Source: an uncultured Bacteroidales bacterium (GTDB lineage: Bacteria > Bacteroidota > Bacteroidia > Bacteroidales > Muribaculaceae). Taken from it: a DNA stretch of 64,000 bases. The position numbers and the translations under genes were made by a program. Positions 6,915 through 63,500 of this stretch are shown here, piece after piece (position 1 is the first letter of the stretch; each line of letters begins with the position of its first letter). The stretch is taken from the NCBI GenBank assembly GCA_902785925.1, contig CADAAI010000012.1:2179-66178 (forward strand), read 5' to 3'. The notes below the pieces were generated by a model, which made no database searches, was not told the DNA's origin, and was given only the letters and a program-made list of their open reading frames with translations.

Positions 6915-6951
6915 ACTGAGTCTACTTGAAATATAGTGGACTCAGTTTTTT
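6915..6951 (+). terminator. Intrinsic terminator between the two C10 protease genes
   Basis: 11-bp stem 6915-6925 / 6936-6946 (one G-U pair), 10-nt loop, followed by a T run at 6946-6951. Confidence 0.65.
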
Positions 6952-6973
6952 AATTATAAACCAACTAGCAGAA

Positions 6974-24085: not shown

Positions 24086-24114
24086 GATGAAATAATTATG
24101 TGTGTTTGAGCCTG

Positions 24115-24122
24115 CAAAGTTA
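24115..24122 (-). promoter_or_regulatory. -7 promoter box (TAACTTTG on the minus strand) for miaB
   Basis: CAAAGTTA on the plus strand, about 30 nt upstream of the miaB start at 24085. Confidence 0.5.
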
Positions 24123-24206
24123 CTACATTTTTATTAAAGAACAAATGTGAGGAAAAGTGAACGCGTTACAATTGTGTAAAACTCGACTAGTAGCATTTAA
24201 CGAGAT

Positions 24207-25559: not shown

Positions 25560-25853
25560 GGTTATAATGCATTATTATTTTTTTGAGCAAAGATAATGGG
25601 CGGAAGATGATGGAAACAACATTAAAAACGCTGAACAGCAAAACTACATAATGCAAATACTAATACATAATTGCTTTGTATGCTGCATGTTCGTTTCGCT
25701 TAAATTAAAAATGATAATATTAGATATGTTGGGATTAGATTTCGAAGGTCTGCGCTACCAATCAAGTCTCAATTGGGTTATGCGTGTTTTTTCCACACAA
25801 ATGACAGTGAATGTATTAGCGAATTAAAAATCAAATTACCAAATAAGCATAAG

Positions 25854-25881
25854 AAAACCGCCACCAAAAGGAAGCGGTTTT
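25854..25881 (-). terminator. Hairpin terminator after the 25923..26660 gene
   Basis: Stem AAAACCGC / GCGGTTTT with an inner CC/GG pair, located 40 nt downstream of the stop on the minus strand. Confidence 0.55.
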
Positions 25882-25922
25882 ACGTCTTAAGTTTTCAAAA
25901 CCTGATAATTTACTAAAAGATT

Positions 25923-26660: not shown

Positions 26661-27078
26661 AAAAAAGAATTTAATAATAAAATTTTTGGACAATAATTTA
26701 GTATATATAAAAAAGCGTGAGAGTCTATATTGTTACTCATTCACGCTCTTGAGGTCTACCACAACCCGTCGCTATGAACAAGTAACGTAGACCTCACGCA
26801 GATATGTAACCAAACTCTGCACGTTTGCACAGAGATGTTAATACATATCACGGAGCGTCTATCGTTACTTTGTCTTTGAGCGACTTATGAAAGTGGTAGT
26901 TTCAAGAGCCAAAGAACAAAGCGCCAATATTCGCTTTAATAATATGTCAAGTTTAAGCTATGTGTTACCGTCACTACGGTAGTTGCTAAAACTTTGGTGA
27001 CAAAGTTAGGAATTTTTTTTCAAATTGCAAGGAGAGTGGTGTGAAATATTACTCGGTTTTTTGCGTTTAAAGAAATAA

Positions 27079-27591
27079 ATGAGAATAATGAAGAAAATAT
27101 TGTTGACGATGTTGCTGGGTGCGTGTTGCGCGCTGATGAGCTGCGATAAGATAAATAACGAGTCGCTGCCCAATTATCCCGTGCGCATTGATTTGGGAGA
27201 ATATGGCAAGTGGAACACCTATGGTGTGCACTCGTTAGGGGAGTACCGCATCTTCAACCGCGAGAAAGGATTGCCCTCCAATTTCCCGTATAACGTGAAT
27301 ACTTACACAGGTTTTGGCGGCGTGCTGCTGTTTATGGGTCAGGACCTGAATGGCAATGCATCGCCGTTGGCATTTGACCTATCGTGCCCAGTTGAGCACA
27401 ATGCCGACGTGACAGTGTCGATAGACAGCGACAATCTAGACGCTTATTGCGCTAAGTGCAAATCGCGCTATGATGTGATTACTGGCATGGGTGGTCCAAA
27501 GAGCGGCATGGCAATTGACCGCAAGGTGGGTTTGAACATCTACAAAGTGCGCTCTACAGTCAATGGCGGCTACATCATCACAAATTATTAG
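27079..27591 (+). CDS. Lipoprotein with a Rieske-like C-terminal motif pattern (non-canonical ligands)
   Basis: Lipobox ALMSC. CPVEH-x17-CAKCKSRYDVITG resembles the Rieske boxes CPH.G / CP.HG..FD..TG, with His to Cys and spacing changes. Confidence 0.5.
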   Translation: MRIMKKILLTMLLGACCALMSCDKINNESLPNYPVRIDLGEYGKWNTYGVHSLGEYRIFNREKGLPSNFPYNVNTYTGFGGVLLFMGQDLNGNASPLAFDLSCPVEHNADVTVSIDSDNLDAYCAKCKSRYDVITGMGGPKSGMAIDRKVGLNIYKVRSTVNGGYIITNY

Positions 27592-27661
27592 TTGTCTTGA
27601 TAAAAATGTCAATGATATATAAATCTTTTGCATTATTATAGGTAATGTGAAAGATTTTTTT

Positions 27662-27669
27662 TATTTTTG
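27662..27669 (+). promoter_or_regulatory. -7 promoter box TATTTTTG for the alcohol dehydrogenase cluster
   Basis: Exact TAnnTTTG, 27 nt upstream of the ATG at 27696. Confidence 0.55.
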
Positions 27670-27695
27670 CACTAAATATTTAAAGTAAGAATATT

Positions 27696-28844
27696 ATGTA
27701 TCAGTTTAAGGTCCCCGATAAGATAATGATGGGCGACAACATTGTCGCCTCGGTCGAGAACGTGTTTAACCTCTACGGCAAGCACGCATTGATAGTGACT
27801 GGCCCCAATATAGCCCGTTCGACAATGATAGCAAGCTTGGAGCGTACCCTCGACAACGACCGTGTGAAATACACCGTTATCACCAACATCGAGGGCGAGC
27901 CCACTGTTAGCATGATAGAAAATGGCGTCCAGTCCTATAAGGAGCATGGATGCGACTTTATTATTGGCCTGGGTGGCGGAAGTCCACTCGATTCGGCCAA
28001 GGCCATTGCCGCGATGACGGTTCTTGAAGGCTCGATTGCCGACTACAAGGGAGTGCGCATTGACGATGCCGAACTTCCTCCGGTGATATGCATCCCCACG
28101 ACCGCTGGTTCGGGCTCGGAGGTTACAAAATACACCATTATCACCGATGAGAACGATGGCCACAAGATGCTGCTCACTGGCAACTCCCTGCTACCCAAGA
28201 TGGCGATGCTCGACTACACTTTCTCCAACGGTTGCCCCAAAACTGTTACAGCCTCGGCAGGTCTTGACGCATTGACCCATGCCATTGAGGCATTTATCTC
28301 GGTAAATGCCCAACCATTGAGCGATGCGCTTGCTTTGAGCGCCATAAAGCGCATCATGCGTTACTTGCCACAGGTTTATCGTGATGGGAGTAACTTCAAT
28401 GCACGCCGTGAAATGTCGATTGCCGCATTGCAGGCAGGAATTTGTATCAACAACAGCAGTGTGACCCTTATTCATGGCATGAGCCGCCCAATTGGTGCGC
28501 GCTTTGGTGTGCCTCACGGCATGGCTAACGCTATGCTGCTCAATGTTTGCTTGAGCGATATGGAGATGGCCGCTCGCCACAATTTGGCACGCATTGCTAC
28601 TTACCTGCGTATCCAGGCCGTTGACGAGATTGACGCGAGCGAGAAATTTGTCGAGGAAGTAGAGAAACTTGTCGAAAAGCTCGAAGTTCCCACTATGAGC
28701 AAGTATGGCATCAACCGTGATGAGTATATGGCTGCTATTGACGATATGAGCTTTGAGGCTATTATGAGTGGCAGTCCGTCGCATGCACCGCGCGAATATA
28801 CCGCCGATTACATACGCGACATCTATATCCGTGCTTATCGATAA
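27696..28844 (+). CDS. Iron-containing (group III) alcohol dehydrogenase
   Basis: 382 aa. GLGGGSPLDSAKAIA nucleotide-binding motif and conserved metal-ligand His region (LTHAIEAF, HGMSRP, HGMANA). Confidence 0.88.
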   Translation: MYQFKVPDKIMMGDNIVASVENVFNLYGKHALIVTGPNIARSTMIASLERTLDNDRVKYTVITNIEGEPTVSMIENGVQSYKEHGCDFIIGLGGGSPLDSAKAIAAMTVLEGSIADYKGVRIDDAELPPVICIPTTAGSGSEVTKYTIITDENDGHKMLLTGNSLLPKMAMLDYTFSNGCPKTVTASAGLDALTHAIEAFISVNAQPLSDALALSAIKRIMRYLPQVYRDGSNFNARREMSIAALQAGICINNSSVTLIHGMSRPIGARFGVPHGMANAMLLNVCLSDMEMAARHNLARIATYLRIQAVDEIDASEKFVEEVEKLVEKLEVPTMSKYGINRDEYMAAIDDMSFEAIMSGSPSHAPREYTADYIRDIYIRAYR

Positions 28845-34684: not shown

Positions 34685-35368
34685 ATGAAGAAGACGTTAT
34701 TACTATTTGTGATGCTGGTGAGCGCCTGGACAACTGTTGTGGCCGACGAGCTGATTCGCTTCGACCTCAATAACTACACAGGGTGGGATTATACCCGTCC
34801 AGGATTTTTACTGAATTCTGAGAGTATAGGACAAAACAACGTGAACCTATTCAAGGAAGGCACGAATCCTGATTATACCCTTATATCGCCTCTTATCGAT
34901 AAGCGCACGACAATCGAGATAATCATAAACGTTTTGGGCTATTCCAAATTTTGGAACAATTCTAATTATGATCCTTACAAGGGTTCACCCACAATCGAGA
35001 TACTTGACCCCGACGGCAACGTATTGAAGAACTTTTTCTATCAATTTGGGGACAAAGCATTTGTTCGCAACTTCTCGGTGCGCATGATTGTTGCCGACTT
35101 GAATGTCAGTTTTTTCAAGATTAGGCTGGCATGCTGGAGCGCTGGAATCTACGACGCCCTCTCGGTGAGAGAGGTGGTAATAGAGGATGGCATACAGCAC
35201 GGTGATGTGAACGGTGACGGCACCGTGACATCGGCCGATGTCACGGCCATTTATGACTATCTGCTAAACGGCGACACCTCATCGCTCATCAACGGCGACC
35301 AGGATGGTGATGGCATCGTCACCGCTTCGGATGTCACCGCCGTCTACAACATTCTCCTGGGCGTGTGA
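34685..35368 (+). CDS. Small secreted protein with C-terminal dockerin-type module
   Basis: 227 aa with a signal peptide and an approx 150-aa uncharacterised domain. Ends in GDVNGDGTVTSADVTAIYDYLLNG...GDQDGDGIVTASDVTAVYNILLGV. Confidence 0.7.
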   Translation: MKKTLLLFVMLVSAWTTVVADELIRFDLNNYTGWDYTRPGFLLNSESIGQNNVNLFKEGTNPDYTLISPLIDKRTTIEIIINVLGYSKFWNNSNYDPYKGSPTIEILDPDGNVLKNFFYQFGDKAFVRNFSVRMIVADLNVSFFKIRLACWSAGIYDALSVREVVIEDGIQHGDVNGDGTVTSADVTAIYDYLLNGDTSSLINGDQDGDGIVTASDVTAVYNILLGV

Positions 35369-35382: not shown

Positions 35383-36177
35383 TTATTGTCCGTAGGTCGA
35401 TTGCGATAATATTGCTGTGAGTTGTGGCTCCAGGACCTTGTTAGAGGCTAGGACGCTCCAATTTCGGTCGGGGCGGAAGCGGTCGGCATAGGCACCTGCC
35501 TCGTGCGCGATGAGCATTGCTGCACACACATCCCATTCGTTAAGATTCATTTCCCAGTAGGCGTCGAGAAATCCCGCCGCCACATAACATATGTCGAGAG
35601 CTGCCGACCCCAGGCGTCTCAACCCTCTGACTACAGGCATGATGCGCTTGAAGTTGTCGAGGTTGTTGTCGGGGTTGGTGGCCTTGTCATAAGGGAATCC
35701 CGTCGCAACCACAGCTTTTGAGAGCAGAGGAGTGCCGCTGGGCGCTATGGGTGTGCCGTTGAGCGTAGCACCGCCTCCCAATGTGGCGCAGAACATTTCG
35801 CCTAGCCTTGCGGCATAGACAACTCCTGCCACTGTCTTGCCATTGTGCTTGACGCCAATTGACACGTTGAACCATGGTAGTCCGGAGCTATAGTTGGTGG
35901 TTCCGTCGAGCGGATCGATGACCCATTCCCACTCACGGTTGCCGTGTGAAGAATATCCCGACTCCTCGGTAAGAATCGAGTGGTCGGGATATAAACGGTT
36001 GATGCAATCTACTAATAATCTCTCGCTGGCTTTGTCGGCTGCGGTAACGACGTCGAAGTCATTTTGCTTGGTGGCGATCTCCAGTTCATTGGAACGGAAA
36101 AACTGGAGCTGCACCTCACCAGCTCCCCGCGCCATTAGAATAGCATCGGCGAGGATTGCGTTATAAGTGCTGTTCAT
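35383..36177 (-). CDS. Inositol monophosphatase family protein
   Basis: 264 aa with IMPase motifs (WVIDPLDGTTNY, GSAALD). Confidence 0.88.
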   Translation of the reverse strand: MNSTYNAILADAILMARGAGEVQLQFFRSNELEIATKQNDFDVVTAADKASERLLVDCINRLYPDHSILTEESGYSSHGNREWEWVIDPLDGTTNYSSGLPWFNVSIGVKHNGKTVAGVVYAARLGEMFCATLGGGATLNGTPIAPSGTPLLSKAVVATGFPYDKATNPDNNLDNFKRIMPVVRGLRRLGSAALDICYVAAGFLDAYWEMNLNEWDVCAAMLIAHEAGAYADRFRPDRNWSVLASNKVLEPQLTAILSQSTYGQ

Positions 36178-36199
36178 TCTAGGCTGTAGCGTGTTTTTC

Positions 36200-36667
36200 T
36201 CACTTTACTTTCTTAATGGGAATTTGACGCTTGAACACTTCCTTGAAGGTGATGAGAGTCTCGGTGCGTCCTAGGCCAAGCTGCAGGAATTTGTCGTGGA
36301 TGAGCTTGAGCAGGTGGTCGTTGGTGTGAGCATAGAGTTTCACAAACATGTCGTACTTGCCAGTTGTGTAGTAGCACTCTACTACCTCGGGAAGCTCGCG
36401 CAGATGATCTACTACGCTCTCAAACTTGGACGAGTCGTTAAGGAAAATACCCACATAGGCGCAGGTCTCATATCCTACAGCTACAGGATTGATGAGTGAG
36501 ATAGAACCTGTAATAACACCCATAGAGTTGAGTTTCTGGATCCTTTGGTGGATAGCAGCTCCCGATACATTACATTCGCGGGCGATTTCCAAATAAGGCT
36601 TGCGAGCATCACTAGAAAGCATGTTCAAAATTTTGTAATCGAGGTCGTCTAACTTTGGTGTTGCCAT
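36200..36667 (-). CDS. Lrp/AsnC-family transcriptional regulator
   Basis: 155 aa. N-terminal HTH (LDYKILNMLSSDARKPYLEIARECNVSGAAIHQRIQKL) plus a RAM/AsnC C-terminal domain. Confidence 0.88.
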   Translation of the reverse strand: MATPKLDDLDYKILNMLSSDARKPYLEIARECNVSGAAIHQRIQKLNSMGVITGSISLINPVAVGYETCAYVGIFLNDSSKFESVVDHLRELPEVVECYYTTGKYDMFVKLYAHTNDHLLKLIHDKFLQLGLGRTETLITFKEVFKRQIPIKKVK

Positions 36668-37272
36668 AATTGTTTTAATCTATTAGGTTATTAAATGATT
36701 GTTCTTTTTTGATTTGATTTAGAAAAAATGCCCCATTATGGTAGGGTTTTTGTAAAAATCTTTGCAAATGTAAGAAAAAAATCTGAAAATCCAACAATTT
36801 ATAATATAAAAAACCTAAAAATAGCAACTTTTTTCTTGTTGTTTGTCTTTTTGCGCTTGCAAAACACGTTTTATGAGTGTTAAGTTAGTGCTAAATCATT
36901 GATTTTGCTTTGTCTTTTTCGATTTTTTCTATATTTTTGCAAAACAAAAAATATGTTTTTATAGATTGTAGATTTTAAGGAGCCCACGCTGAGAAGCGTA
37001 GGCTCTTTAATTTGTTTACCAAGTGTCGTTGCAAAGATGACGCAAGAGACAATGCATAGATCTGATGTTGATGGACAGTGTCGGTTGCTTTCTTTATACA
37101 AATATGGTGGGCATACCGGTTTTTTTTGAAGTTAGCGATGTTGTGTTATTTGTGAAAATTTTAGGGTAATTTGTGAAATAGTGGTTGAGGAAAATTATTG
37201 TAATTTTGTGCTGTATTAAACATTAAGTTATAATACATTCAAATTCGAATTAGAAATAAGAATTATTTAGAT

Positions 37273-37800
37273 ATGGATGCATTTATTGTAGACCCTCGAA
37301 AGACCACGCCAGAGGAAATGGAGCGTGGCATGCGTGATGTGAAATTGGTGTTTGAGATTAACCACACTATGCCTTATACCGATGAGTATAACAAACTGGT
37401 GAAAGAGCTCTTTGGCGATAACTTGGGTGAGGGTAGCATGGTGATGCCGCCACTCAAGGGTGTGTGCTTCGACCGAGTGAGGATAGGCAACAATGTGATG
37501 ATTATGCCCGATTGCCTTATGATGTCGAGAGGTGGAATTACCATCGACGATGATGTGATGATAGCTGCCAATGTGCAGCTCATCAGCAATAACCACGACC
37601 TGCACGACCATCCGTTGTTGCTATGTAAACCGGTACACATCTGCCGTAATGCTTGGATTGGAGCTGGCGCGACTATTCTGCCAGGCGTTACTGTGGGCGA
37701 GAATGCTGTGGTGGCGGCTGGTGCCGTGGTGACTAAAGATGTGGCAGAAAACACCATCGTGGGTGGGAATCCCGCTAAGTTCATCAAGAATATAGATTAA
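37273..37800 (+). CDS. Sugar O-acetyltransferase (maltose/galactoside acetyltransferase-like, hexapeptide repeat)
   Basis: 175 aa. Left-handed beta-helix hexapeptide repeats (IGNNVMI, IDDDVMI, ICRNAWIGAGATILPGVTVGENAVVAAGAVV). Confidence 0.8.
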   Translation: MDAFIVDPRKTTPEEMERGMRDVKLVFEINHTMPYTDEYNKLVKELFGDNLGEGSMVMPPLKGVCFDRVRIGNNVMIMPDCLMMSRGGITIDDDVMIAANVQLISNNHDLHDHPLLLCKPVHICRNAWIGAGATILPGVTVGENAVVAAGAVVTKDVAENTIVGGNPAKFIKNID

Positions 37801-37928
37801 TGGCGCCATTGGAAAACTCTTAATAAAGCATAAATCTTGCTTTTGTAAACCATTGATGATCTCATTACTAACATTAAAGTGCGTGACAAACTTTTTGTCA
37901 CGTTCTTTGTTGTTTGCGGTGATGATAG

Positions 37929-37936
37929 TAACTTTG
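37929..37936 (+). promoter_or_regulatory. -7 promoter box TAACTTTG for the hxlR-like/cupin pair
   Basis: Exact TAnnTTTG, 49 nt upstream of the ATG at 37985. Confidence 0.5.
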
Positions 37937-37984
37937 CAACCGAAACGAACGAAAAGTTACTAACACTATAATTCAAAAGATAAG

Positions 37985-38365
37985 ATGTTACGAGATATTA
38001 TAGTAGATCCCCATTATCCCGATTGCCCCATACGCAACATACTGACGCGAATAAGCGACCGATGGTCAATGCTCATTTTGCTCACTCTTGACGGCAAGCA
38101 AGAGCCTATGCGGTATTCTGACATTCTCGCTGTGATTCCCGACATTTCCCAGAAGATGCTGACAGTGGCACTCAAAAATCTTGAAGCTGATGGACTTGTG
38201 GAGCGTCATGCTTATGCCGAGATTCCACCACGCGTTGAATACAACATTACTGAAAGGGCAAAAACGTTGATGCCCCACATCAATAGCCTTGTTGGATGGG
38301 CATTGGAAAATCTCGCCGACATTCTTAACGACAGGAAAAAATATTCATCAAATAAAAATCATTAA
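37985..38365 (+). CDS. HxlR-family winged-helix transcriptional regulator
   Basis: 126 aa. CPIRNILTRISDRWSMLILLTL... and EIPPRVEYNITERAK are typical of HxlR. Confidence 0.85.
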   Translation: MLRDIIVDPHYPDCPIRNILTRISDRWSMLILLTLDGKQEPMRYSDILAVIPDISQKMLTVALKNLEADGLVERHAYAEIPPRVEYNITERAKTLMPHINSLVGWALENLADILNDRKKYSSNKNH

Positions 38366-41326: not shown

Positions 41327-41334
41327 TAATTTTG
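41327..41334 (+). promoter_or_regulatory. -7 promoter box TAATTTTG for the GH13 amylase gene
   Basis: Exact TAnnTTTG, 27 nt upstream of the ATG at 41361. It lies inside the longer ORF that opens at 41322, which argues for the 41361 start. Confidence 0.55.
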
Positions 41335-41360: not shown

Positions 41361-44300
41361 ATGAATCACAAACCATTAGCGAAGCAGATAATGCTCATGA
41401 CATTGATGGCATGCACAGCATTGGCAGGCTGGGCATCGACAACCTTTGTGGGAGGTCGCAGCGACTTTCGCGACGAGACCATTTATTTTGCCATGACCAC
41501 ACGTTTCTATGATGGTGATGTGAGCAACAACACTTATTGCTGGGACGGGAACCAAGCTGGAAATGTCGCCAATCAGGACCCCGAGTGGCGTGGCGACTTC
41601 AAGGGACTCATTGAGAAACTTGACTACATCAAGGCGTTGGGATTTACTGCAATATGGATTACTCCTGTGGTTCAAAATGCTTCAGGCTATGACTACCATG
41701 GCTATCATGCCCTTGACATGAGCCATGTGGACCGACGTCTTGAGAGCGATGACGTGAAGTTCCAAGACCTGATTGATGCTGCTCATGCTCGTGGTATGAA
41801 GGTGATACTCGACATTGTTATAAATCACACAGGCAACTTCGGTGAGGAGAATCTGTGCAAACTCTTCAACCGTGACTATAGTGTGCCTCAGAGTGACATG
41901 AGCCAGTGTATGGTGCCGTTCACTATCTCGCAGGGAGGATTACTGCAGGACAACTACAGCAGCATGGGTGGTAGTGCGCAATACAGCGACCGTCTCTCGA
42001 AGATGAAGAACACCGACGGCCAGAATCACGATAGCCACAACCTGTGGCACCATTATGGCAACTTCAACTGGGATGAGCCCAACCGCTGGTGGGCTCAAAT
42101 CGCTGGCGACTGTGTGGACCTCAACACAGAGAATCCTCAGACCTACAGTTATTTGATAGATTGCTACGGCGAGTTTATCAAAATGGGTGTAGATGGTTTC
42201 CGCATTGACACTGGCGGCCACATCTCGAGGTTGTCGTTCAATGCAGCTTTTGTTCCAGCCTTCAAAGCATTGGGTGAGCAGTACAAGAGCAAGCGCCTGA
42301 ACGAGTGCCCGTTTTATATGTTTGCCGAGGTGTGCGCACGCTACAGTGATGTTACCTATCGTGGCCAGCCCTCGCTCTCGCCCTATTTTTACACCTGGCA
42401 GAGCGACCAGTCACTATTGAGCCAGTGGAATAATGACCCAACGTATTGGGATGGGGTAGAGGTGTATGAAAGCACAGACCCTGCTACACTCGACAATGAG
42501 AAGCTTTGCCTCGATGAGCATAATGCCAACTTGAGTGAGAGCTCACAGCCACGCAGCAATAATGCTCTGCTCAATGGCAATGATTACCATACCCCAGACT
42601 ATAGCCAGGCTAGTGGTCTCAATGTGATAGACTTTACTGTGCACTGGAATTTTCAGAATGCTGGTAGGGTTTGGGGAGTGCTTGACAAAGATAACCTCTA
42701 TAACGACGCCACTTTCAATGTGAACTATGTGGAGAGTCATGACTATGGTCCCGACAGTTTCAACCGTTTTAATGGCGGCACCGACCAATGGGCCGAGAAC
42801 CTCTCGCTGTTGTTTACCATGCGTGGCATTCCATGCCTGTTTCAGGGCGGTGAGATAGAGTTTCGAAAGGGTGTTCGCATTGACGAGGGCACAAATATAT
42901 CGCTGAAGAACAGCGGTCGTGCCTACTACGGTGGTTACCTCAAAGGTGAGGTCGAGACAACCGACTTTGGCGAGTACAGTGATGCTATCGGCAATGTTGC
43001 GGCAACGTTGAGCCGTCCGTTGGTGAAGCACATCCAGCGCCTCAACAAGATACGCGCTGCAGTACCTGCATTGCGCAAGGGGCAATATAGCAAGAGCGGC
43101 TGCTCATCGAGTGGCGGCTATGCCTTTAAGCGTCGCTACACCAGTGGCGATATCGACAGCTACGCACTCATCGCCCTCAATGCTGGCGCCACATTCACTA
43201 ATGTGCTCAACGGCACTTACACCGATGTGGTTACTGGCAATACCGTCACCGTGACCAACGGCACCTTGACTACACCATCGTTCAGTGGCAAAGGCAATAT
43301 GCGCATATATGTGCTCGATGGTCCCGGCAAGATAGGTGACGACGGTCCGTTCCTTTACACAACTAGCAATGTGACTCCCACGCAGCTCAGTTATGATGGC
43401 ACTGAGGAGGAGGGCGATCCAACCACCACCTATGTTACTGGTGGAGGCAGTAGTGGTGGCGGTGTCGACATCGATGATCTTGAGGTGTATACACCCACCA
43501 TCAGCGATGACGAATTGAGTGTGTTTTATGAGGGTCCAGCCAACAATACGTCAATCACGTTGTGGGTATGGAACAGCAACACGAATTTCACTGGTGGCAG
43601 TTGGCCTGGTCAGAATGCCAAATTGATGGGCAAGACCGAGGACGGTAGCCGCTTGATTTTCAAGTGGACCTACGAAGGTGAATTCATTGCCAGTAATATG
43701 CCCACTTGGCTTATCTTCAGCAAGAGTGGAAGCAACCAGACTCAGAACCTAGAGTTTGTGAATCATGGTTACTACATTGATGGCGTTTATGACCGTACCA
43801 TCACAGAGCAAGAGCCCGTTGATCCTAGTGTTGCTACACTGAGTGTTGACAAGGAGAGCGGCGAGTATATCGATGAGGTGACGGTTACAATCACAGCTTC
43901 GTTTAACAATGCCACAATTGTGTATACCACCGACGGCACAGCTCCTACAGCATCGAGCCCTCAAGCTACAGGCAGTGTTACACTCACATTCAACAGCACA
44001 ACAACGTTGCGTGCTGGTGTGGTGCATAATGGTGAGGTTAAGAACACGATTGTGCGCACCTATAGGATACGTTCGAGCCACGCCGCAAAGCTTCATGCTT
44101 TCTTCATCGCTCCTGCAAGTTGGACCAACACTATTTACTGCTGGGCATGGAATTCCACACTTGGTAACCAAAACTACACTGGTGGCACATGGCCTGGAGC
44201 TGCGTGCAATCTAGTTGGAAGCAAGCTCTATAACGGCCTCGACATTTGGGAGTGGGATGGTGGCATGGTTGGTGATGACATTCCCACTGGAATCATATTC

Positions 44301-44555
44301 AGCAATCATGGTAGTCCACAGACCGCCGATTTCGCTTTTGTCAATGGGGCCTTTTACAATGTGAACGGTCTTGTGACGATTGCGACTGGCGACGTCAATC
44401 TTGATGGCGCTATCACTAGTGCCGATATAACCGAACTGTATAACGTGCTGCTAGGCAATGACTACACCTATAGCTTTAATGCTGACGTCAATGCTGACGG
44501 AGCTGTAAATTCGGCTGATATTACTGCTGTATATAATATAATTTTAGGCAATTAA
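41361..44555 (+). CDS. Secreted GH13 alpha-amylase with two starch-binding-like modules and a C-terminal dockerin-type module
   Basis: GH13 regions GFTAIWITPV, DIVINHT, GFRIDTGGH, FAEV, YVESHD. Two W-rich W.WPG modules (ITLWVWNS...GGSWPGQ; IYCWAWNS...GGTWPGA). C-terminus GDVNLDGAITSADITELYNVLLG...ADVNADGAVNSADITAVYNIILGN. Confidence 0.85.
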   Translation: MNHKPLAKQIMLMTLMACTALAGWASTTFVGGRSDFRDETIYFAMTTRFYDGDVSNNTYCWDGNQAGNVANQDPEWRGDFKGLIEKLDYIKALGFTAIWITPVVQNASGYDYHGYHALDMSHVDRRLESDDVKFQDLIDAAHARGMKVILDIVINHTGNFGEENLCKLFNRDYSVPQSDMSQCMVPFTISQGGLLQDNYSSMGGSAQYSDRLSKMKNTDGQNHDSHNLWHHYGNFNWDEPNRWWAQIAGDCVDLNTENPQTYSYLIDCYGEFIKMGVDGFRIDTGGHISRLSFNAAFVPAFKALGEQYKSKRLNECPFYMFAEVCARYSDVTYRGQPSLSPYFYTWQSDQSLLSQWNNDPTYWDGVEVYESTDPATLDNEKLCLDEHNANLSESSQPRSNNALLNGNDYHTPDYSQASGLNVIDFTVHWNFQNAGRVWGVLDKDNLYNDATFNVNYVESHDYGPDSFNRFNGGTDQWAENLSLLFTMRGIPCLFQGGEIEFRKGVRIDEGTNISLKNSGRAYYGGYLKGEVETTDFGEYSDAIGNVAATLSRPLVKHIQRLNKIRAAVPALRKGQYSKSGCSSSGGYAFKRRYTSGDIDSYALIALNAGATFTNVLNGTYTDVVTGNTVTVTNGTLTTPSFSGKGNMRIYVLDGPGKIGDDGPFLYTTSNVTPTQLSYDGTEEEGDPTTTYVTGGGSSGGGVDIDDLEVYTPTISDDELSVFYEGPANNTSITLWVWNSNTNFTGGSWPGQNAKLMGKTEDGSRLIFKWTYEGEFIASNMPTWLIFSKSGSNQTQNLEFVNHGYYIDGVYDRTITEQEPVDPSVATLSVDKESGEYIDEVTVTITASFNNATIVYTTDGTAPTASSPQATGSVTLTFNSTTTLRAGVVHNGEVKNTIVRTYRIRSSHAAKLHAFFIAPASWTNTIYCWAWNSTLGNQNYTGGTWPGAACNLVGSKLYNGLDIWEWDGGMVGDDIPTGIIFSNHGSPQTADFAFVNGAFYNVNGLVTIATGDVNLDGAITSADITELYNVLLGNDYTYSFNADVNADGAVNSADITAVYNIILGN

Positions 44556-44598
44556 ATAAAAAAGTGACTGGGAATTTGTGTTTTAGCACTTGCTTTAT

Positions 44599-44606
44599 TA
44601 CTTTTG
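44599..44606 (+). promoter_or_regulatory. -7 promoter box TACTTTTG for the CBM-dockerin gene
   Basis: Exact TAnnTTTG, 50 nt upstream of the ATG at 44656. Confidence 0.5.
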
Positions 44607-44655
44607 CAAATCATGAAATAAACACTAAATTATTAACTATAAATTTTTTATTCAA

Positions 44656-46158
44656 ATGAAGAAAATTACTACACTTTTACTTGCTATAGCATTTGTGGCA
44701 ATAAGCGCAAATGCTACTGTTACTATCAATGTGCGCACCACCACGGGTGATGCCCCCTACCTATATACTTGGGGAGGAGCCAGCAATGGTGAGTGGCCTG
44801 GCACGCTGATGGATGAGACCCAAACCAGCGTTACTGAAGATGGTCTCGTGTGGTTAACTCAAGAGTTTGACTGTGACGCTATCAATATTATCTTCAACGA
44901 TGGTGGCCTCGACGACGAGGGCACTGGCGCAATCCAGACCGATAATATCTTGGGCGTGACAGGTACAGCTTACTTTATCTTTGACCCTGAGGAGGGCGAA
45001 TTTGAGGATGTTACTGGTACCTATGTAGAAATCCATGAGTTTGACCCAAGCACTCTGCCAGCTGGCGTGGTGTTTGTTGAGGGTAAGGAGTTTGCTTACT
45101 TTGTGGCCCCTACTACTTGGACAAAATGCAATGTGTGGGCTTGGAACGAAACCACCGGCACAAATTTCACACAAGCAGGTCCAAATGGGTGGCCTGGTGA
45201 CCCCATCACTTTGATTGGCAACACCACCGATGGCAACCCTGTTTACCAGTGGATTGGTCCTGACATCGTTGCTGACGACCGTCCTGAGGGTATTATTTTT
45301 AACAATGGAAGTGGTACGCAGACCAGCGACCTGGATTATGTTGCAGGTGGCGTTTACAACCTTGCTGGCAAGTTGCTCTATACTGTATCCAACAATGCAG
45401 GAGGTGGCATTGAACTACTAGAGCCAGTCATAACCGACAATTATATTGAATTTGTTGGAGTGAAGGCCTCTGGTAATTACAAGTTCACTCTTAACACATA
45501 TGAGTGGGAAGAAGATCATGGTCCACAATTCCAGCTTGCTATTGAGCCTATTGATCCCTCGAAACCAGCTTTTTTTGCTGCCGAAGACCTTAATGACCCC
45601 AATTATTGGGAGCCTATGTTCATGCGTGTGACCGAGGAGATGGCGGGTCAGTCGATGACCGCTCAAGACAATATTAAGCGATTGTATCTTGGCGATGTGC
45701 AACTGCTCGAGAACCAGTTCATAGACTATGATGAGCTTCATGTCGTTGGTTTTAACCTAAATAATAACTACACACTTCCCGCAGGCTGTCTTCTTAATGC
45801 TGGTCAGCACATGGATGAAATGGATGTAAAATGTAATGGTAGCATGACCTTGAGTCCAAATTCATTGCCTGTTGACAAGAACTTTGTTGTAACTGTTTAT
45901 ACACAGCAGATATATGATGTTTGGAATGCTTATAAGCAGTCCTACAACTGCCAGTACATCCTTAATCTAGTTGGCGATGAGCCTATTCCTGGTGATGTTG
46001 ACGGTGACGGCCATGTTACCAGTGGTGACGTGACTGCACTTTACAACTATATGCTTAACAGCGATGACAGTTCGATTGTCAACGGTGATCAAGACGGCGA
46101 TGGCCACATCACTTCGGGTGACGTGACTACCGTCTACAACATCATGCTTGGCAACTAA
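44656..46158 (+). CDS. Secreted non-catalytic protein with two starch-binding-like modules and a C-terminal dockerin-type module
   Basis: 500 aa with a signal peptide. Modules PYLYTWGGASNGEWPGTLM and CNVWAWNE...GPNGWPGDP, an approx 200-aa unknown region, and the tail GDVDGDGHVTSGDVTALYNYMLN...GDQDGDGHITSGDVTTVYNIMLGN. Confidence 0.75.
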   Translation: MKKITTLLLAIAFVAISANATVTINVRTTTGDAPYLYTWGGASNGEWPGTLMDETQTSVTEDGLVWLTQEFDCDAINIIFNDGGLDDEGTGAIQTDNILGVTGTAYFIFDPEEGEFEDVTGTYVEIHEFDPSTLPAGVVFVEGKEFAYFVAPTTWTKCNVWAWNETTGTNFTQAGPNGWPGDPITLIGNTTDGNPVYQWIGPDIVADDRPEGIIFNNGSGTQTSDLDYVAGGVYNLAGKLLYTVSNNAGGGIELLEPVITDNYIEFVGVKASGNYKFTLNTYEWEEDHGPQFQLAIEPIDPSKPAFFAAEDLNDPNYWEPMFMRVTEEMAGQSMTAQDNIKRLYLGDVQLLENQFIDYDELHVVGFNLNNNYTLPAGCLLNAGQHMDEMDVKCNGSMTLSPNSLPVDKNFVVTVYTQQIYDVWNAYKQSYNCQYILNLVGDEPIPGDVDGDGHVTSGDVTALYNYMLNSDDSSIVNGDQDGDGHITSGDVTTVYNIMLGN

Positions 46159-46173: not shown

Positions 46174-46217
46174 AAAAAAAGATGGCGTACCACTTTTTTA
46201 TGGTACGCCATTTTTTT
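46174..46217. terminator. Bidirectional intrinsic terminator
   Basis: 11-bp stem ATGGCGTACCA / TGGTACGCCAT flanked by an A run (46174-46181) and a T run (46211-46217), between convergent genes. Confidence 0.8.
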
Positions 46218-51859: not shown

Positions 51860-52648
51860 ATGATTATGAAGAAATTTTTTTGCATGATTGCAATGGCGGT
51901 CATAACACTGACCGCCTGGTCGCAGAAACCATTGAATGTGAGCACCTACAGTGGTACAGCACTCGAGCGCTATGACGGTCAACAGCGCATGGTGACCGCC
52001 GACCGCTACCTTTTTACTGGCTGGAACACCATCTCGCTGCCATTCGCCATGAGCGAACAGGAGCTTGACGAAGCTTTGGGACAGGGCGTGAAGTTAGAGC
52101 GTCTGGTAGGCGTTACTCAGCAAGGCGCTGAACTTGTGTTGAACTTCCAAGACTGCAAGGCGGATGGAATTAAGGCCAATCAACCTTACATTCTCTACTA
52201 TCCAGGCGAGACAGGCTCAAGGAAATTCCGCGCCAATGCCGTGATTGAAAACAAAGAGTCGAAGGTGGCATTCACTACTGGTGGTGGCGTGAAGCTTACA
52301 ATGACAGGCGCTGCTCACAAGACCGATGGCAAGGGCCTCTATGGTATCCTCGCCATTAATAACGGTGATGCAAACTTCACGCGCATTGAAAAAGACAACG
52401 ACAAGGCATTCTTCTATGCTACACGTTGTTTCATTAGCATCCCAGGCGAACAAGAGTTCACTTTGACACCTAACCACTTGGGTCGTGGAGAGGTGACCAG
52501 CATCACCGACATTGCTGCCGCCAACGATATCGTTGACGTTTACAATGTGTTGGGCATGCGTGTTGCTCACAACATCAAGGCTGGTGATGTCAACAATCTG
52601 GAGCCAAACATCTACATCGTGAAAGGTCACAAGATTCTTGTGAAGTGA
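51860..52648 (+). CDS. Small secreted protein with T9SS C-terminal sorting domain
   Basis: 262 aa with a signal peptide. The tail DVYNVLGMRVAHNIKAGDVNNLEPNIYIVKGHKILVK is typical of a T9SS CTD. Confidence 0.6.
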   Translation: MIMKKFFCMIAMAVITLTAWSQKPLNVSTYSGTALERYDGQQRMVTADRYLFTGWNTISLPFAMSEQELDEALGQGVKLERLVGVTQQGAELVLNFQDCKADGIKANQPYILYYPGETGSRKFRANAVIENKESKVAFTTGGGVKLTMTGAAHKTDGKGLYGILAINNGDANFTRIEKDNDKAFFYATRCFISIPGEQEFTLTPNHLGRGEVTSITDIAAANDIVDVYNVLGMRVAHNIKAGDVNNLEPNIYIVKGHKILVK

Positions 52649-57540: not shown

Positions 57541-60500
57541 TTATCGCTTGAGGATTTGCTTGATGGCTCGTGTGCCGCTGTAGGTGCGAGCTTCCACGAA
57601 GTAGACGCCATCGAGCAGATGACTCAAGTTGAACGTTGCATGATTATCATCGGGAGTGAAGTGATCAAGCAACTTGCCGTTGACTGAGTAAACGTTGACC
57701 TCCTTGAGGATGTCGCCAGCCTTAACGCTTATCACATCTTGAACCACTGAAGGTGAAATGATGATTGACGACGATGATACCACGTTGTCGATTCCCGAAG
57801 TGTTGTTAAGATCAAACACCTGTGGTTCGTCGAGGTCGCCATAAATCCAGTCGCTGAGCCATTGAAGCTCCTCGCTGAACCATACTTCCTTACCGTTGTA
57901 GACAGTGGCGAAGCGAACGGTCTTGCCGGCTTCGTCGGCATTGCCTGCAATAGTGAGCATGTAGAGGCCGTCCTCGGTGGCGGTAGTAACGCCACGGCAC
58001 TCGCCGTCGACGAATGCAGCAATGCACAGATCATTGACTTCAATGTCACCCTTCACAACTTGTGCAACCACATTCATATTGTCGCTGAACTCGTGATGGT
58101 CAACTGGGGTGAATGGCAGGTTGCGTGGCGCATTCATCATCACAGCTGGCGCTTGATAGGTAGTAGCATCGATGGTCGGATAAACGAAGACCAAAGGCTC
58201 ACTGTTGCATGACTTGTAGTAATAACCCATACCAGGCACTATGGCTGTGAGATCGCCCTCCCACTTGTAGCCGTCGTAGAACGCCACTTGGGTCTTGCTC
58301 TTGACGATGTCGCCACGAGTAGGCTGCAGGTCGGCAAACGCCTCATTCAGGCTCAAGTTGTAGATTGACAGCGGACCAATCCAGTTCCATCCAGGGTAGA
58401 TGGCTTGAGTAGTAGTGCGGGTGTCAATCATCGTACCGCTGATTATGTGGTTGATATCGTTCTTGACCTTGAGCTTGTAGAGGTTGCCAATGGCGAGCGT
58501 GTCGAGACCGGTAGAGGTCCACTTAGTGCCGCTGTTCATGGCAAATCCTTCCTTGCCCTTGATGGTGTTGAACACCTTGGCATGTCCAAATAGGCTCTCG
58601 AGGTCGGCCTTGCCCTGCTCGGGCTGCACATAGAGCGAAATCCAGTTCCAACCATTAGCAAGGTTGCATTGCTGCTCTATCAAGTCACTGGGTTGCCAAA
58701 CGACAGGATTGTCGTAGTCACCAACCAAGCCGTTGGGCAGGTAGGTGGGGCTGAGCGTCTCTCCATTGAGCTTGGTTTTTACATTACCAAGCACCACTCC
58801 TCTTTCGGCATCATAGATGCGGAAGGTGATAGGTTTGGTGCTAGTGATGTCTTCCAGGCCATATATAGTCATGCTCACGAAGTAGGCATCACGGCTGGTG
58901 ACGAGCTTGGGCGATGCCACACCACAGCAATTGTTATCGACAAAGGCTGCTATCTTGGTGTTAGTATTGGTGCAAATCTTGTCGTCGAGATAGATTTGAC
59001 CTATCATGTTCATGGAGCTCTCATAATCATCGGGATTGACAGTCCAGCTGGGCTCGTTGCCCCGCACTGTGACGTTAAAGAGCAGCGGTGCGCAGATGTC
59101 ACCATCGTTAACGGCATAGGCATATACCAGATGTGTGCCCACAGGAGCATCGGCTCCAATGGTGAACTGCACTGGTATTGTCTCATCAATAGCAAGCACA
59201 CCACTGGTTTCAGATGGTTGAATCCATGTGGGCAAGCCAGTAATGCTGAACTTGCCATTCTCACGGCCTTTGTTGTGAAGTGTTGCCTGAGCTGTGAATT
59301 CACTCAAGCGATCTTTATCAACCACGATGCTCTCCTGGTTCCACTCAAGGGTGTTGTAGTCGACCACAGCACTCCAAGTGATGGGCTCAGAGATATTGTC
59401 ATACATGTCGCGCACGTTCTTGACAACGAAGGTGAGCAGGTTGCCCTGCATGCGCGACGGCAATGTGAGCAAGTTGATGTATATCTCGTTGTTAGATGCC
59501 GTGTAATCAAAATCAAGGTTCTGCTTGAGCGGCGACGTGCGTAATGCAGGAGCTGTAATGGCTTGAGTAACGCCATCGCCCAGCGCGTGAGTGATGCCCA
59601 TCTGTGAAGCATTAGGAGCGCTGTTTTCGAGGCTAAACTCAGTGACGATGTTGCCATTGGCATCAAGTGAGCTATGCTCCATTGGGTAGTAGGCTATGAG
59701 TCCAGTAACCTGTGCGGTATCAACCTGGTTGTAGCGGTTGGCGATTACCGAGGTTCCGTCGCATGCCACGTTCCACACCCTAATCTCGTCGATGTCGCCA
59801 GTGAAGTGGTAGCTTTCCTCAATAAATTGGTCGTTATCTGGATTGCGCTTCAAGATACCGCCCACATAGAGGTAATCGCCCGCTGGTGCTGGCAGTTGCT
59901 GCTCGGCAATGGTCTTCACGGCACTGCCATCGACATAGACCACAGCGCTCACACCACGATGCACATTGAGCGCCAAGTGATGCCAGTTGCCGTCGTTGTA
60001 GTTCACATTGGTGAGCACAATGGGCAGACCATTGCTAATGAGCGACGACAAGGTGTCGTTATACACATGCAGGAGCATGGAGTTGTCGTAGTCGAAGCCT
60101 ATCGACACGCGGTCGGTTACCGAGAGCAGCGTTGCCCTGGCATTCTTGTCCTTCTCGCCACGGAACCAGGTCTCAACAACATAGCTGTCGCTCGGACGAG
60201 GAGAAACTGAGCCAATAGGAATCTTTATAACGCTTTCACCATCGAGATGGGCAGCGAGATTTGTGTTCTCCACGTTCCATGTCTCGGCTGGCAAGTGAAT
60301 GTTGCGGGCGCGTGCATAGTCGGTAACCACGGTGCCATGGCCCTCATTCATCTTCCAGTAACCCACCAGGCCTGGCAAGTAAGGAGCCTTGGCCTCATCC
60401 TTTTGCCCGAGCTGAGTGCGCACTGGGTTATTCTTGTTCCACAGCACGAGCTCATGCATCATGCCAGTGAAATTGCGTCCCAGCGTCAATTGTCCGATGC

Positions 60501-63500
60501 CATTGTAGTCGGGAACGATAGCCTCGTCAAAGAGCATCGTCTCGTCGGCTTCATTGGCCATGATCATAGTGAAGGTGTTTTGATTACTCATTGCACCCTT
60601 CACATAGTTAAGAGCCAAGAATACCCATTTGTCCATGGGAACTGCAGCTTGCGATGTGATAACCTTGCCGTTGATGTTGGCCTCAACCTTGCCTTGGTCG
60701 TTAATCGAGAGGCTCAGGCTGTTGCCCTCGGTACCGTGCTCAAGTATTGTGCCGCTACTCAGGCGCTTGAGCCACAGCGAGGAAGCGAAGCTAGTGTTGG
60801 CAATGGGCAGATAGGCATCGGTCTCAACAGGAGTGCCGTTGAACTGCAGCGACACGTCGTGTGAAACCTGCGCATCGTTGAGCGAACCTGTGATGAAGAA
60901 GTTGGTCTCCTTGGTGAGATAGCTCTCGCGAATGTCCTCATTGAACTTGATTCGGATGTCGTCGGTGGGTGTGAGGATGCCCGCGTTGGGATAGGCCTGT
61001 CCAAGCAACTTGGGACCACGGGTGTCGCGTGTCACAGTTTTCTCGGGAGTTGGTTTGGTATACTCTTTGCCGCCATAGACGCTCATACTTTCGGCAACAA
61101 CCACATAGTTGCCGTCGATGTTGGGCAGCACGAGTGTGTAGTTGATGTTGGGTTCTTCGTCACTTAGCATAGATTGCACATCGCTCAGCTGTCCGTCGGG
61201 TAAGTACTCCACATTGGTAATCCACTCATGGGCGGTAATCCAATTGTTGTCGCCAGCAAATCGATACTTGAGGCGCACACCCTTGAATCCTGTGAAGAAG
61301 CGGTTAATGTCGCTTATAGTGACTTTCACTTGCTCGCCACTTTGCACATCGTGCTGGTTGAGCACGTTCTTGTCGAGCGTGAGTTTTATCTCAGGAGCAG
61401 CAGGGGTAAAGTGAACATTTATTTCCTGTTCGTCATATACTGTGCGTCCCATAATCGATGATGCCGGGTCGAGCATGTATTCGCAGGTGCTGAGCAATTG
61501 AATTTTCACGTTTTCATAGTCAAGTATCGACTGATCGGTCTGCTTCACCGAGAGAGTTTTAATCAGCGGCGTTCCATATTCGAGCCAAACCTCGTGGCCA
61601 TCTACCATAGCATCTCCATCTATAGTCACTTGCAACCCATTGGGGTTGGAGGCAGGATCGACATAAACCAGTACCGATGAGAGCTGGTCGTGTGTCTCAC
61701 TGTCGTTGGTCATCCTGATTTCAACTGATGCCGACTGACCAGCAGGGATGTCAACGTAGTTGCGTACAGGAATCTGGATGTGAGGATTGTCAAGCTTCAT
61801 CGTCGCGTAGTCGAGGATTGTGCCAGGGTTGTAGTACTTGGTGACCCTTTCTCCCTCATAGGGGCAACGGGTCTGGCCGCCTCGGGTGCGGAATATGGGG
61901 CTCCATGCTCGTGGCGAATTAAATATATCGACCGTGTGGGCATTACCACGCTGAGTATCATTTAGAGTATAGGAGAACAATTCGGTGGTAGTTGTCTCGT
62001 TCACCTCCTGCTTGGTGTGGTGGTAGCCAATGTCAACATTGGTAATGAATATGCTACCCCACTTGCCGAGCAGATATCCATTCTTGCCCTTGTAGGCAAG
62101 AGTGGTTTTAAAGTTCTCGGTAGAATTTTCCACATCTTTGGTCACTGTGCTGGTGGAATTGGTGACGGTGACTCCACGCTCAAATGACTCATTGCCCACC
62201 TTCATCTTGGGGTCGTTGAAGGCTTTGATTTTGTCTTCTTCATTATCGGCAAGAGTTTTTTTCCACTGTTCAACAATCTCATTGCACCAGCGCACACTGT
62301 CACAGCCCTCATAGCCATTGGGGAACCGAGCGTAATAGCTAGGTCCTTCCATGCCTTCGGCCGCCTCGCTACCCCAAGCTTTGGCATCGTCGTTGGATGT
62401 GCCATATTTGGGGTCGTTTTCGGTAAGGAGGGTGTAATAGGTGGGCACAGCTGGTTCCTCCTCAATCTCATCAAGCGAGTTGATGTGCTTGAGCATTGAG
62501 TTGCGGGTGCGATTGATATTCTTGAAAAGGGTGTTCTCGATGTAGCTTTGTGTGTACTGGAAATGGGTGTTGAATTTCTCGTCCATCGAAACGGTCTCCT
62601 CCATCCCAATGGCCCATGAGCCATCGTCCTGCCGCATGGGGCCAATCTTGTCGGCGGCGCCAATGATGTAGTTAGTGGAATAGCCTATGAACACGTCTCC
62701 GTCGCGCCCCACGAGAATAGGCGAGGCACTAGTCGAGGTGGAATGATTGTGTGAAAGAGTGACCGAAGTGTGATGATCCCAAGTTTTCTCGATATTGTAA
62801 GAGATACCAAAGGTATTCTCGTGTATGAGCGTGTTGTAGAATATCTCTGCAAAGACAAGAGTGCCCGATACAGCGCCAAACTCGAGTGTAGTGTTGTAGT
62901 TCCAGGCGAATTCTGTGCCTTGATGTATGCCATAGGTGTGATAGCTGTAATTGCAAGTGACGGTGTCGGTGCCCCATGTTGCGGTTGATGCATCGCCTGG
63001 CGGATCACGCAGCACCATTTGCACGTGGCTTGGGCCTGCAGTGATGAAATTGTTGCCTGTTGGCACCACTCCCGTAATGATTGCCTCCAGCCCCGTGTTG
63101 CGCCACAATTTAGTTTGATCATTGATTACCATCGAGGCATTCATAGTGCGTGTGTAGGGAGCATTAAGGCTGGGTATGCCCACAACCCACTTGTAGCGTC
63201 CTTCGCCGTTTTCATCGAGTTTCACTTGCTCTCGCTCGAGCTTTACGAGCTGTCCGCGGACCACGTTGTGTCCATCAACTTCTTGGTCAATGGCCGCTAT
63301 GCGTGCCGCCTCACCTATCTCGTTGTCGAAGGTTACTACCGAGTCGCAGAGTAAGTCTTCGTAGCGTCGTCCAGTGGCGCTAGCATCATAGTTGAGATAA
63401 GGCTCATAGGCCCTCACCTTAAATTCATAGGTTCTTCCCTTCTCAAAGACGGGGTAACCGAAATTATAGGTTGCTGAATGGGACTCCTCATCGTAGGAGT

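Follow-up and report, generated by a model that had tools for sequence, protein, structure and literature searches.

One of the closest described counterparts of the locus analysed here is the amylosome of Ruminococcus bromii (Amy4/9/10/12, Sas6, Sas20 and the Sca scaffoldins; PMC4611034, PMC9112005), which combines amylases built from a GH13 catalytic domain, CBM26 starch-binding modules and a dockerin with non-catalytic, dockerin-bearing binders. We analysed a 64-kb stretch of DNA from a rumen Muribaculaceae bacterium (hereafter the window, meaning the whole stretch, to which our statements about the genome are limited), in which two adjacent genes encode a similar combination, namely a predicted GH13 α-amylase (gene 1) and a predicted non-catalytic starch-binding protein (gene 2), each ending in a dockerin. 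Unlike in R. bromii, no cohesin or scaffoldin was found here, the host is a Gram-negative member of the Bacteroidales with an outer membrane, and the dockerin alternates in orthologues with tails resembling those of the type IX secretion system (T9SS), for which R. bromii has no counterpart.

Three further systems bear comparison. The Sus system of Bacteroides thetaiotaomicron (SusC/D, SusE/F and SusG) belongs to the same phylum and serves the same task, with a surface amylase and binders feeding a TonB-dependent importer; however, Sus relies on lipid anchors and on CBM58 or SusE/F modules, whereas the pair described here uses CBM26 and dockerins, lies among housekeeping genes and apparently does not encode lipoproteins. 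Multi-modular T9SS carbohydrate-active enzymes (CAZymes), as in 'Candidatus Paraporphyromonas polyenzymogenes' (PMC5831590), are likewise large multi-domain hydrolases with carbohydrate-binding modules and a C-terminal sorting module, and some orthologues of the amylase are tailed in this manner, but in the pair itself a dockerin stands where the T9SS domain would be, and neither protein matches the T9SS model TIGR04183. Finally, anchoring of the Ruminococcus albus type, with many dockerins and one or few cohesins (PMC6118326), offers a parallel in that dockerins would hold single enzymes at the surface without a large complex, although R. albus has at least one recognisable cohesin and none is known here.

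Dockerins of rumen Bacteroidetes were reported in 2016 and judged type I-like (PMC6487960). Dockerin-rich Bacteroidetes bins with zero cohesins followed from camel rumen in 2018 (PMC6071333), Bacteroidetes dockerins without cohesins and of unclear role from a bovine rumen catalogue in 2020 (PMC7260996), and Muribaculaceae C941, with a dockerin and GH13 and no cohesin, in 2023 (PMC9863278); a moose rumen study cited in this set of papers (PMC6487960, PMC6071333, PMC7260996, PMC9863278) also concerns Bacteroidetes orphan dockerins. As in our pair, these type-I-like dockerins, which sit on CAZymes, peptidases and unassigned proteins, occur in genomes without recognisable cohesins, but the papers give counts only and describe no gene pair, selection or T9SS-tail exchange. 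From these surveys, the existence of such proteins was already known, so that our finding is unexplained rather than undescribed; an earlier note on this DNA had suggested that the surface assembly may be undescribed for the lineage, which is overtaken by the reports of 2016–2023 as regards the proteins and holds as regards their mechanism. A full-text literature search returned no paper naming a Bacteroidota dockerin partner or linking dockerins to T9SS tails, an absence that is not proof, and none on a conserved amylase–binder pair or on selection on its dockerin. We found no paper anticipating what we report as new here: the conserved gene pair, the selection on its dockerin and the exchange of dockerins with T9SS-like tails. 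On balance we propose, as a reading about equally likely to prove right or wrong, that the dockerin serves as a C-terminal tag for retention at the surface, exchangeable with other tails, and binds a receptor that is encoded by the organism itself and is not recognisable as a cohesin.

Results

A conserved amylase–binder gene pair

Domains were called with Pfam profiles at their curated gathering scores (dockerin, PF00404, Dockerin_1, 22.9 bits; cohesin, PF00963; CBM26, PF16738, 28.1 bits; GH13, PF00128, 22 bits), and every domain match in genes 1 and 2 lies above its cut-off. T9SS tails were sought with TIGR04183 (cut-off 23 bits), TIGR04131 and PF18962, together with a home-made seed hidden Markov model (HMM) built from TIGR04183-positive tails. 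For comparison we used 22 related genomic loci, all from ruminant metagenome-assembled genomes (MAGs) labelled Muribaculaceae or, loosely, Bacteroidales or 'Prevotellaceae'; the named homologues of window proteins come from Muribaculaceae MAGs, and relatives carry NCBI names such as 'starch-binding protein' and 'dockerin type I repeat-containing protein'.

Gene 1 encodes, in order, a signal peptide, a GH13 domain, a CBM26 module, a CHB_HEX_C-like domain, a second CBM26 module and a dockerin (Table 1). Its orthologues begin at the ATG at 41361 and not at an upstream ATG at 41322, and the -7 box lies inside the longer open reading frame (ORF) that starts at 41322, which favours the 41361 start. 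The earlier note's description of a signal peptide followed by a GH13 core is borne out, with PF00128 matched at E 2e-41 (143 bits) and the GH13 regions I–IV present as DIVINHT (aa 151–157), GFRIDTGGH (aa 279–287), FAEV (aa 321–324) and YVESHD (aa 456–461); the Asp nucleophile, Glu acid/base and Asp stabiliser are assigned from these motifs and not from a structure. Amylases of the PDB and SusG match gene 1 at E 1e-25 to 1e-19 in its N-terminal part only. Neither protein had been credited with a lipobox cysteine or a T9SS tail: scans with TIGR04183, TIGR04131 and PF18962 gave no match to either, and the signal peptide of gene 2 is free of cysteine, but that of gene 1 does contain a cysteine in L-M-A-C. 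This Cys18 is not conserved in position between orthologues, in contrast to an AxA site that directly precedes the catalytic domain; a type I signal peptide is accordingly more likely than a lipoprotein, lipidation at Cys18 being possible.

Gene 2 consists of a signal peptide, two CBM26 modules, an orphan domain (hereafter the X domain) and a dockerin. A Pfam scan found no catalytic domain in it, and Pfam and a structural model agree on the layout first read from the sequence, with two modules, a stretch of about 200 residues and a C-terminal dockerin. The full-length model (predicted local distance difference test, pLDDT, 80) has fold matches to CBM25, CBM41 and R. bromii Sas6 (7uwu), the last among the top matches (E 2e-4, 12% sequence identity). 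The WPG modules had been called CBM25/26; the starch-binding family and the number of two per protein stand, and it is CBM26, not CBM25, that Pfam scores, with two stretches in gene 1 (47.2 bits) and two in gene 2 (59 bits). With high confidence, since these families are well characterised, homology predicts that gene 1 encodes a Sec-exported, endo-acting α-amylase gripping starch via its two CBM26 modules, and gene 2 a non-catalytic binder of starch that would act through its own two.

Table 1 Features of the window, with coordinates counted from its first letter
Feature	Position	Strand	Basis
-7 box, Bacteroidota type, upstream of gene 1: TAATTTTG	41327..41334	+	
Gene 1, predicted secreted GH13 α-amylase, 1064 aa	41361..44555	+	ORF and Pfam
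Gene 1 signal peptide, aa 1–26, ending A-G-W-A-S, Cys18 in L-M-A-C (aa 15–18)	41361..41438	+	
Gene 1 GH13 catalytic region	41439..43439	+	Pfam, motifs
Gene 1 first CBM26-like module, W.W...WPG	43515..43784	+	Pfam; boundaries by eye from sequence
Gene 1 CHB_HEX_C_1 / Fn3_assoc β-sandwich spacer, aa 832–895, 45.8 bits	43854..44045	+	Pfam
Gene 1 second CBM26, best Pfam stretch aa 915–991	44091..44369	+	
Gene 1 dockerin, type-I-like, extreme C-terminus, Ca-loop/helix segments DVNLDGAITSAD and DVNADGAVNSAD	44388..44552	+	
-7 box upstream of gene 2: TACTTTTG	44599..44606	+	
Gene 2, non-catalytic predicted starch-binding protein, 500 aa	44656..46158	+	
Gene 2 two CBM26 modules, aa ~21–111 and 145–238	44716..45369	+	Pfam, model
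Gene 2 X domain, orphan α/β, ~190 aa (aa ~252–438)	45409..45969	+	
Gene 2 dockerin, type-I-like, segments DVDGDGHVTSGD and DQDGDGHITSGD	45988..46155	+	
Strong bidirectional intrinsic terminator hairpin, 3' of gene 2	46176..46217	.	
Two tandem C10 (streptopain-like) peptidases	3866..6898 and 6926..10009	+	
Third dockerin protein, 394 aa	10885..12069	-	Pfam
Fourth dockerin protein, 227 aa: signal peptide, 150-aa N-terminal domain, dockerin	34685..35368	+	
Giant surface protein, more than 2150 aa, N-terminus beyond window end	57541..63993 (to the window end, 64000)	-	

Judged by gene content and order, rumen Muribaculaceae share the two genes as a conserved starch module. The pair is kept in at least 11 ruminant Muribaculaceae MAGs; the order ssb-argC-argR-amylase-binder recurs in loci L001, L011–L016, L018, L021 and L022, while the copy in L017 is cut, and the syntenic amylases are 85–89% identical to the window copy. 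Its neighbours are housekeeping genes (ssb, an argC-like gene, argR, DUF4332, a small lipoprotein, prmC and lysA), and no SusC/D pair or regulator adjoins it, the only SusC/D pair in the window being 25 kb away; the arrangement of a Sus-like polysaccharide utilisation locus (PUL), with enzyme and binders adjoining SusC/SusD, is not seen. The two adjacent ORFs were confirmed as first described, as were the TAnnTTTG boxes assigned to them; this motif occurs 67 times in the window, more often than the 39 matches expected, and none of 100 shuffles reached 67. Since no terminator was detected between the genes when one was looked for, and a strong one follows gene 2, gene 1 and gene 2 may be co-transcribed, with an additional internal promoter.

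The X domain has a more irregular distribution. Most genomes have gene 2 orthologues of 306–310 aa with two CBM26 modules and a dockerin and without this domain; gene 2 carries it in the window and in L001, and it is found elsewhere in a paralogue adjoining alaS, of either 637–641 aa (with two CBM26 modules) or 409–415 aa (X domain and dockerin only). Across X-domain proteins, P0102, P0105 and P0106 among them, the domain is found as a single copy or as a tandem pair, CBM26 is present in some and absent from others, and the C-terminal tail may be of either kind. An AlphaFold model of the X domain alone (pLDDT 89.6; predicted template-modelling score, pTM, 0.85) has helices and roughly evenly spaced strands; a fold search of the PDB returned no significant neighbour (best E 0.012, TM 0.22), and a profile relation to BspA-type LRR_5 was sought and not found. 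We considered the domain as a hidden cohesin and rejected this, as the modelled α/β fold is unlike the β-sandwich of cohesins.

Type-I-like dockerins under purifying selection

The window encodes four dockerin proteins, which score 40.3 (gene 1, aa 1010–1061), 36.4 (gene 2, aa 445–496), 46.1 and 40.9 bits against Dockerin_1. The dockerins claimed for both members of the pair are confirmed by this profile, and they have the expected layout of two segments of about 22 residues, in each of which a helix comes after a calcium loop of the form D-x-[ND]-x-[DN]-G-x5-D. The gene 1 dockerin matches solved type I dockerins of Clostridium thermocellum and C. cellulolyticum (4fl4, 2vn5, 2mte, 1daq and 2ccl) at E 6e-6 to 2e-4, in alignments that span both calcium loops. 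From these comparisons, the tails of both proteins are genuine type-I-like dockerins. The dockerins always stand at the extreme C-terminus, with 0–3 residues following ...LLG, and fall into at least two sequence types in the window, one of the amylase and one common to the other three proteins. There is one dockerin-bearing amylase and one dockerin-bearing CBM26 binder in the window, and related genomes have paralogous CBM26-X-dockerin proteins.

Across 11 orthologues, the ratio of nonsynonymous to synonymous divergence (dN/dS) was 0.165 for the dockerin, 0.029 for GH13 and 0.06–0.07 for the CBM26 modules, values that are rough, as dS is saturated (1.3–1.7). Calcium-ligand and core positions of the dockerin are kept, and the dockerin is clearly maintained by purifying selection, to judge from these alignments; among the 120 clusters listed for the amylase architecture of about 1065 aa (54–99% identity), it is present in about 108. 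Species differ at residues that, in known dockerins, make contact with cohesins, whereas the scaffold is retained, a pattern expected from co-evolution with a partner.

This pattern also bears on whether the partner might belong to other organisms. The proteins could be released, for example in vesicles or by lysis, and then dock on feed particles to the cohesins that Firmicutes cellulosomes or amylosomes present there, which would account for the missing cohesin and would agree with dockerins that are closest to clostridial type I, and with the lateral transfer of dockerins from Firmicutes to Bacteroidetes that Bensoussan et al. proposed (PMC6487960). However, rapid divergence of the dockerins among close Muribaculaceae is hard to fit with a fixed foreign target, and their exchange with cell-anchoring tails, described below, points to the producer's own surface; we regard docking to other species as very improbable.

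Exchange of the dockerin for other C-terminal tails

In close homologues from three unrelated families, namely the amylase, the X-domain proteins and the third dockerin protein, the place of the dockerin is taken by another C-terminal tail. This tail is short and T9SS type-A-like in the amylase and X-domain families; in the closest case of the third family, it is matched by no T9SS model.

Eleven amylase orthologues (57–71% identity) lack the dockerin and end in ...Y.I.G...G(I/V)Y(I/V).G.K..(I/V)(K/R). Of their tails, that of P0178 exceeds the TIGR04183 cut-off (23.5 bits), and those of P0218, P0136 and P0138 remain below it at 15–19 bits; the seed HMM matched six of the seven others at the extreme C-terminus with E 2e-4 or better, the remaining one being P0175 (E 0.039). 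In a neighbour-joining (NJ) tree of the amylase body, computed without support values, these proteins occupy at least four positions, both basal to and nested among the dockerin-bearing forms. P0218, which is among them, is the final member of a canonical SusC-SusD-SusE-SusF-GH13 locus.

Two X-domain proteins, P0105 with a dockerin and P0102 with another tail, are 75% identical without gaps over aa 1–541 and diverge thereafter. The tail of P0102 ends in ...GIYIRGGKKILVK and has a weak score with the seed HMM, which matches the tail of the sister protein P0106 at E 8e-7.

The third dockerin protein comprises a type I signal peptide, an N-terminal domain whose family has members annotated as Cleaved_Adhesin (PF07675), a module resembling carbohydrate-binding modules and a dockerin. 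Its first 232 residues are 100% identical to those of P0288, which then has a different binding-like module and a dockerin-less tail ending in ...GVNIVVREMTDGTKNVTKMMK; this looks like a very recent recombination of a C-terminal cassette within one population, as read from the two sequences. The module to which P0288 switches after residue 232 is about 55–60% identical to that of the window protein. More distant homologues end in ...PGIYINGNKKVVIK, and one, P0346, has PF18962 on record. The gene lies downstream of SusD (12287..13915) and SusC (13930..16641); this linkage was dropped as evidence, being absent in the genome of the orthologue P0262.

Ten further alternative tails gave no match to TIGR04183, and we rejected extending a T9SS assignment to all alternative tails, as the home-made HMM backs only part of them. 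A second conserved tail, ...PF.G(V/I)NIVV(T/R)..DGT...TK(I/V)(V/M)K, ends P0288, P0337, P0340 and two proteins of L001 (18407–20347, + strand; 14681–16513, - strand). This 'NIVVTR'-type tail is matched neither by TIGR04183 nor by the seed HMM and is common to otherwise unrelated secreted proteins; it may be a sorting tail outside the known classes.

T9SS cargo is also encoded in the window itself, by at least four genes: those of the giant protein, whose type A tail scores 32.7 bits against TIGR04183, of the two C10 peptidases (22.5 bits, against the cut-off of 23) and of a protein at 51860..52648. Dockerin proteins and T9SS cargo coexist in one genome, so that the dockerin does not simply replace a missing T9SS. 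Each C10 peptidase has a Spi inhibitor pro-domain, about 650 aa without assignment and a T9SS type-A-like tail. A dockerin-bearing C10 peptidase from the rumen appears in the list of Bensoussan et al. (PMC6487960), and in view of the T9SS-like tails in the window, C10 peptidases are possibly a fourth family with tail exchange. The protein at 51860..52648 (+ strand), of 262 aa, has no Pfam match and a T9SS type-A-like tail (seed HMM E 8.5e-8, aa 220–262) that is shared by its orthologues in L012, L014 and L016.

These exchanges raise an alternative in which the dockerin acts as the secretion or sorting signal. The T9SS or another outer-membrane exporter would then handle it as a C-terminal domain of a third type, no cohesin-like receptor would be needed, and the crossing of the outer membrane would be solved. 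The dockerin is always at the extreme C-terminus and changes places one for one with T9SS-like tails in three families, in one instance inside a protein whose first 232 residues are otherwise identical, and T9SS cargo occurs in the same genome. We also count in favour of this alternative that the T9SS of Flavobacterium johnsoniae has among its substrates ChiA, whose C-terminal signal is non-canonical. It has to contend with the nature of the dockerin, a helical calcium-binding module of about 60 aa unlike the β-sandwich C-terminal domains of the T9SS, with the absence of a TIGR04183 match in either protein of the pair, and with the species-specific variation at cohesin-contact positions, which fits a co-evolving partner better than a conserved translocon; we consider it unlikely.

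The alternative tails bear equally on a location inside the cell envelope. Both proteins of the pair have only a type I signal peptide and no recognised export signal, and could be retained in the periplasm like SusA, or the dockerin could be no more than an appendage that stabilises the protein with calcium, or a remnant of gene transfer. Against this, it is only with starch that is insoluble or large, and outside the cell, that a pair of CBM26 modules in each protein and a dedicated non-catalytic binder would be of use, some orthologues bear T9SS-like export tails, one of them in a SusG-like PUL position, and purifying selection has acted on a dockerin that is so widely retained, so that we find periplasmic retention or a functionless remnant highly doubtful.

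Search for a docking partner

The earlier note had recognised no cohesin in the window, and we confirmed this by Pfam scans, in which PF00963 had no match in window ORFs of at least 150 aa (essentially all). A lenient scan (E up to 10), which covered the X domain, the N-terminal domains of the other dockerin proteins and unassigned regions of the giant protein and of one C10 peptidase, again found no PF00963, nor was it matched in scanned proteins of the related loci and neighbour lists. In 33 related loci, no candidate partner recurred in the neighbourhoods of dockerin genes, which consist of housekeeping genes (among them alaS, thrS, pfk, infC, aroC and tkt). The giant protein, which had been put forward as a possible partner, failed as a classical scaffoldin: self-BLAST detected no internal repeats in it, there was no cohesin match, and it is itself T9SS cargo. 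It has two Laminin_G_3 regions, with most of its length without a family match. Near aa 1680 and near aa 1990 it carries short segments that resemble each other (...AAFVD..C.GV...).

These results weigh most directly on a true amylosome, in which a canonical or highly divergent cohesin scaffoldin elsewhere in the genome would assemble a complex as in R. bromii. The architecture of the components is the same as in the R. bromii Amy and Sas proteins, at least two dockerin types in one genome resemble systems of multiple specificity, and the scans covered 64 kb of the genome only. However, a cohesin was matched in nothing that we scanned, dbCAN surveys record none for Bacteroidetes bins rich in dockerins (PMC6071333, Table 1; PMC7260996) and none for Muribaculaceae C941 (PMC9863278), and the dockerin genes are scattered singly among housekeeping genes without a scaffoldin-like neighbour. 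A cohesin scaffoldin is what defines an amylosome and none was found, so that the amylosome-like architecture proposed at the outset holds for the list of parts and for a position outside a SusC/D locus, but not for the defining scaffoldin; a true amylosome is improbable.

Other features of the window

Small dockerin proteins of 227–229 aa, of which the fourth dockerin protein is the copy in the window, lie within a few kilobases of the pair in L001 (13861–14550), L017 (5179–5865), L018 (15252–15938) and L022 (12588–13274). They adjoin homologues of asnC and suhB, and the closeness to the pair may simply be conserved gene order.

The G+C content is about 0.40–0.41 at 24001..28000 and 36001..38000, against about 0.48–0.51 elsewhere in the window. 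The low-G+C part, which includes an AAA/KaiC-like ATPase at 24207..25559, may be foreign DNA.

Discussion

Our analysis describes a conserved pair of genes for an amylase and a starch binder, whose dockerins are kept by selection and are, in several families, exchanged for tails of other kinds. Under the surface-retention reading that we favour, the dockerins would hold both proteins non-covalently, in a calcium-dependent manner, on a receptor at the cell surface, where starch would be captured and cut, the products then being imported by SusC/D-type transporters encoded elsewhere.

Several points weigh against retention by a surface receptor. No receptor for the dockerins was found, neither the window nor the scanned proteins of related loci containing a PF00963 cohesin, and published dbCAN surveys likewise record cohesins neither for MAGs of rumen Bacteroidetes (PMC7260996) nor for Muribaculaceae C941 (PMC9863278). 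The comparison of tails has limits of its own, in that several alternative tails lie below the curated T9SS cut-off or are unmatched, that of P0288 being of the 'NIVVTR' type, the NJ tree lacks support values, and saturated dS makes the dN/dS values rough. The weak point of the model is the crossing of the outer membrane by dockerin proteins. We know of no route to the Bacteroidota cell surface for a soluble protein with a type I signal peptide only, and this gap in export keeps alive the alternative of the dockerin as a sorting signal.

A broader form of the surface-tag reading, which we put forward tentatively and hold to be appreciably less probable than the reading that we favour, is that Bacteroidota dockerins are a third class of surface-sorting or anchoring module, interchangeable with T9SS C-terminal domains and read either by the T9SS or by a non-cohesin receptor that is linked to the outer membrane or to lipopolysaccharide. 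If this is true, it would account for the decade-old puzzle of dockerins without cohesins and would represent a new way in which Gram-negative bacteria decorate their surface with enzymes.

Muribaculaceae and Prevotella-like Bacteroidales are among the most abundant degraders of starch and fibre in the guts of ruminants and rodents, and gene catalogues contain thousands of their dockerin-tagged enzymes. The locus offers a compact and conserved test case, with a single enzyme and a single binder whose dockerins are of different types, and the exchange of tails turns a vague puzzle about dockerins into a concrete, testable question. If the dockerin is indeed a tag for surface anchoring or secretion in Gram-negative bacteria, the CAZyme repertoires of rumen and gut Bacteroidota would have to be read differently, and a new display tag would become available for engineering.

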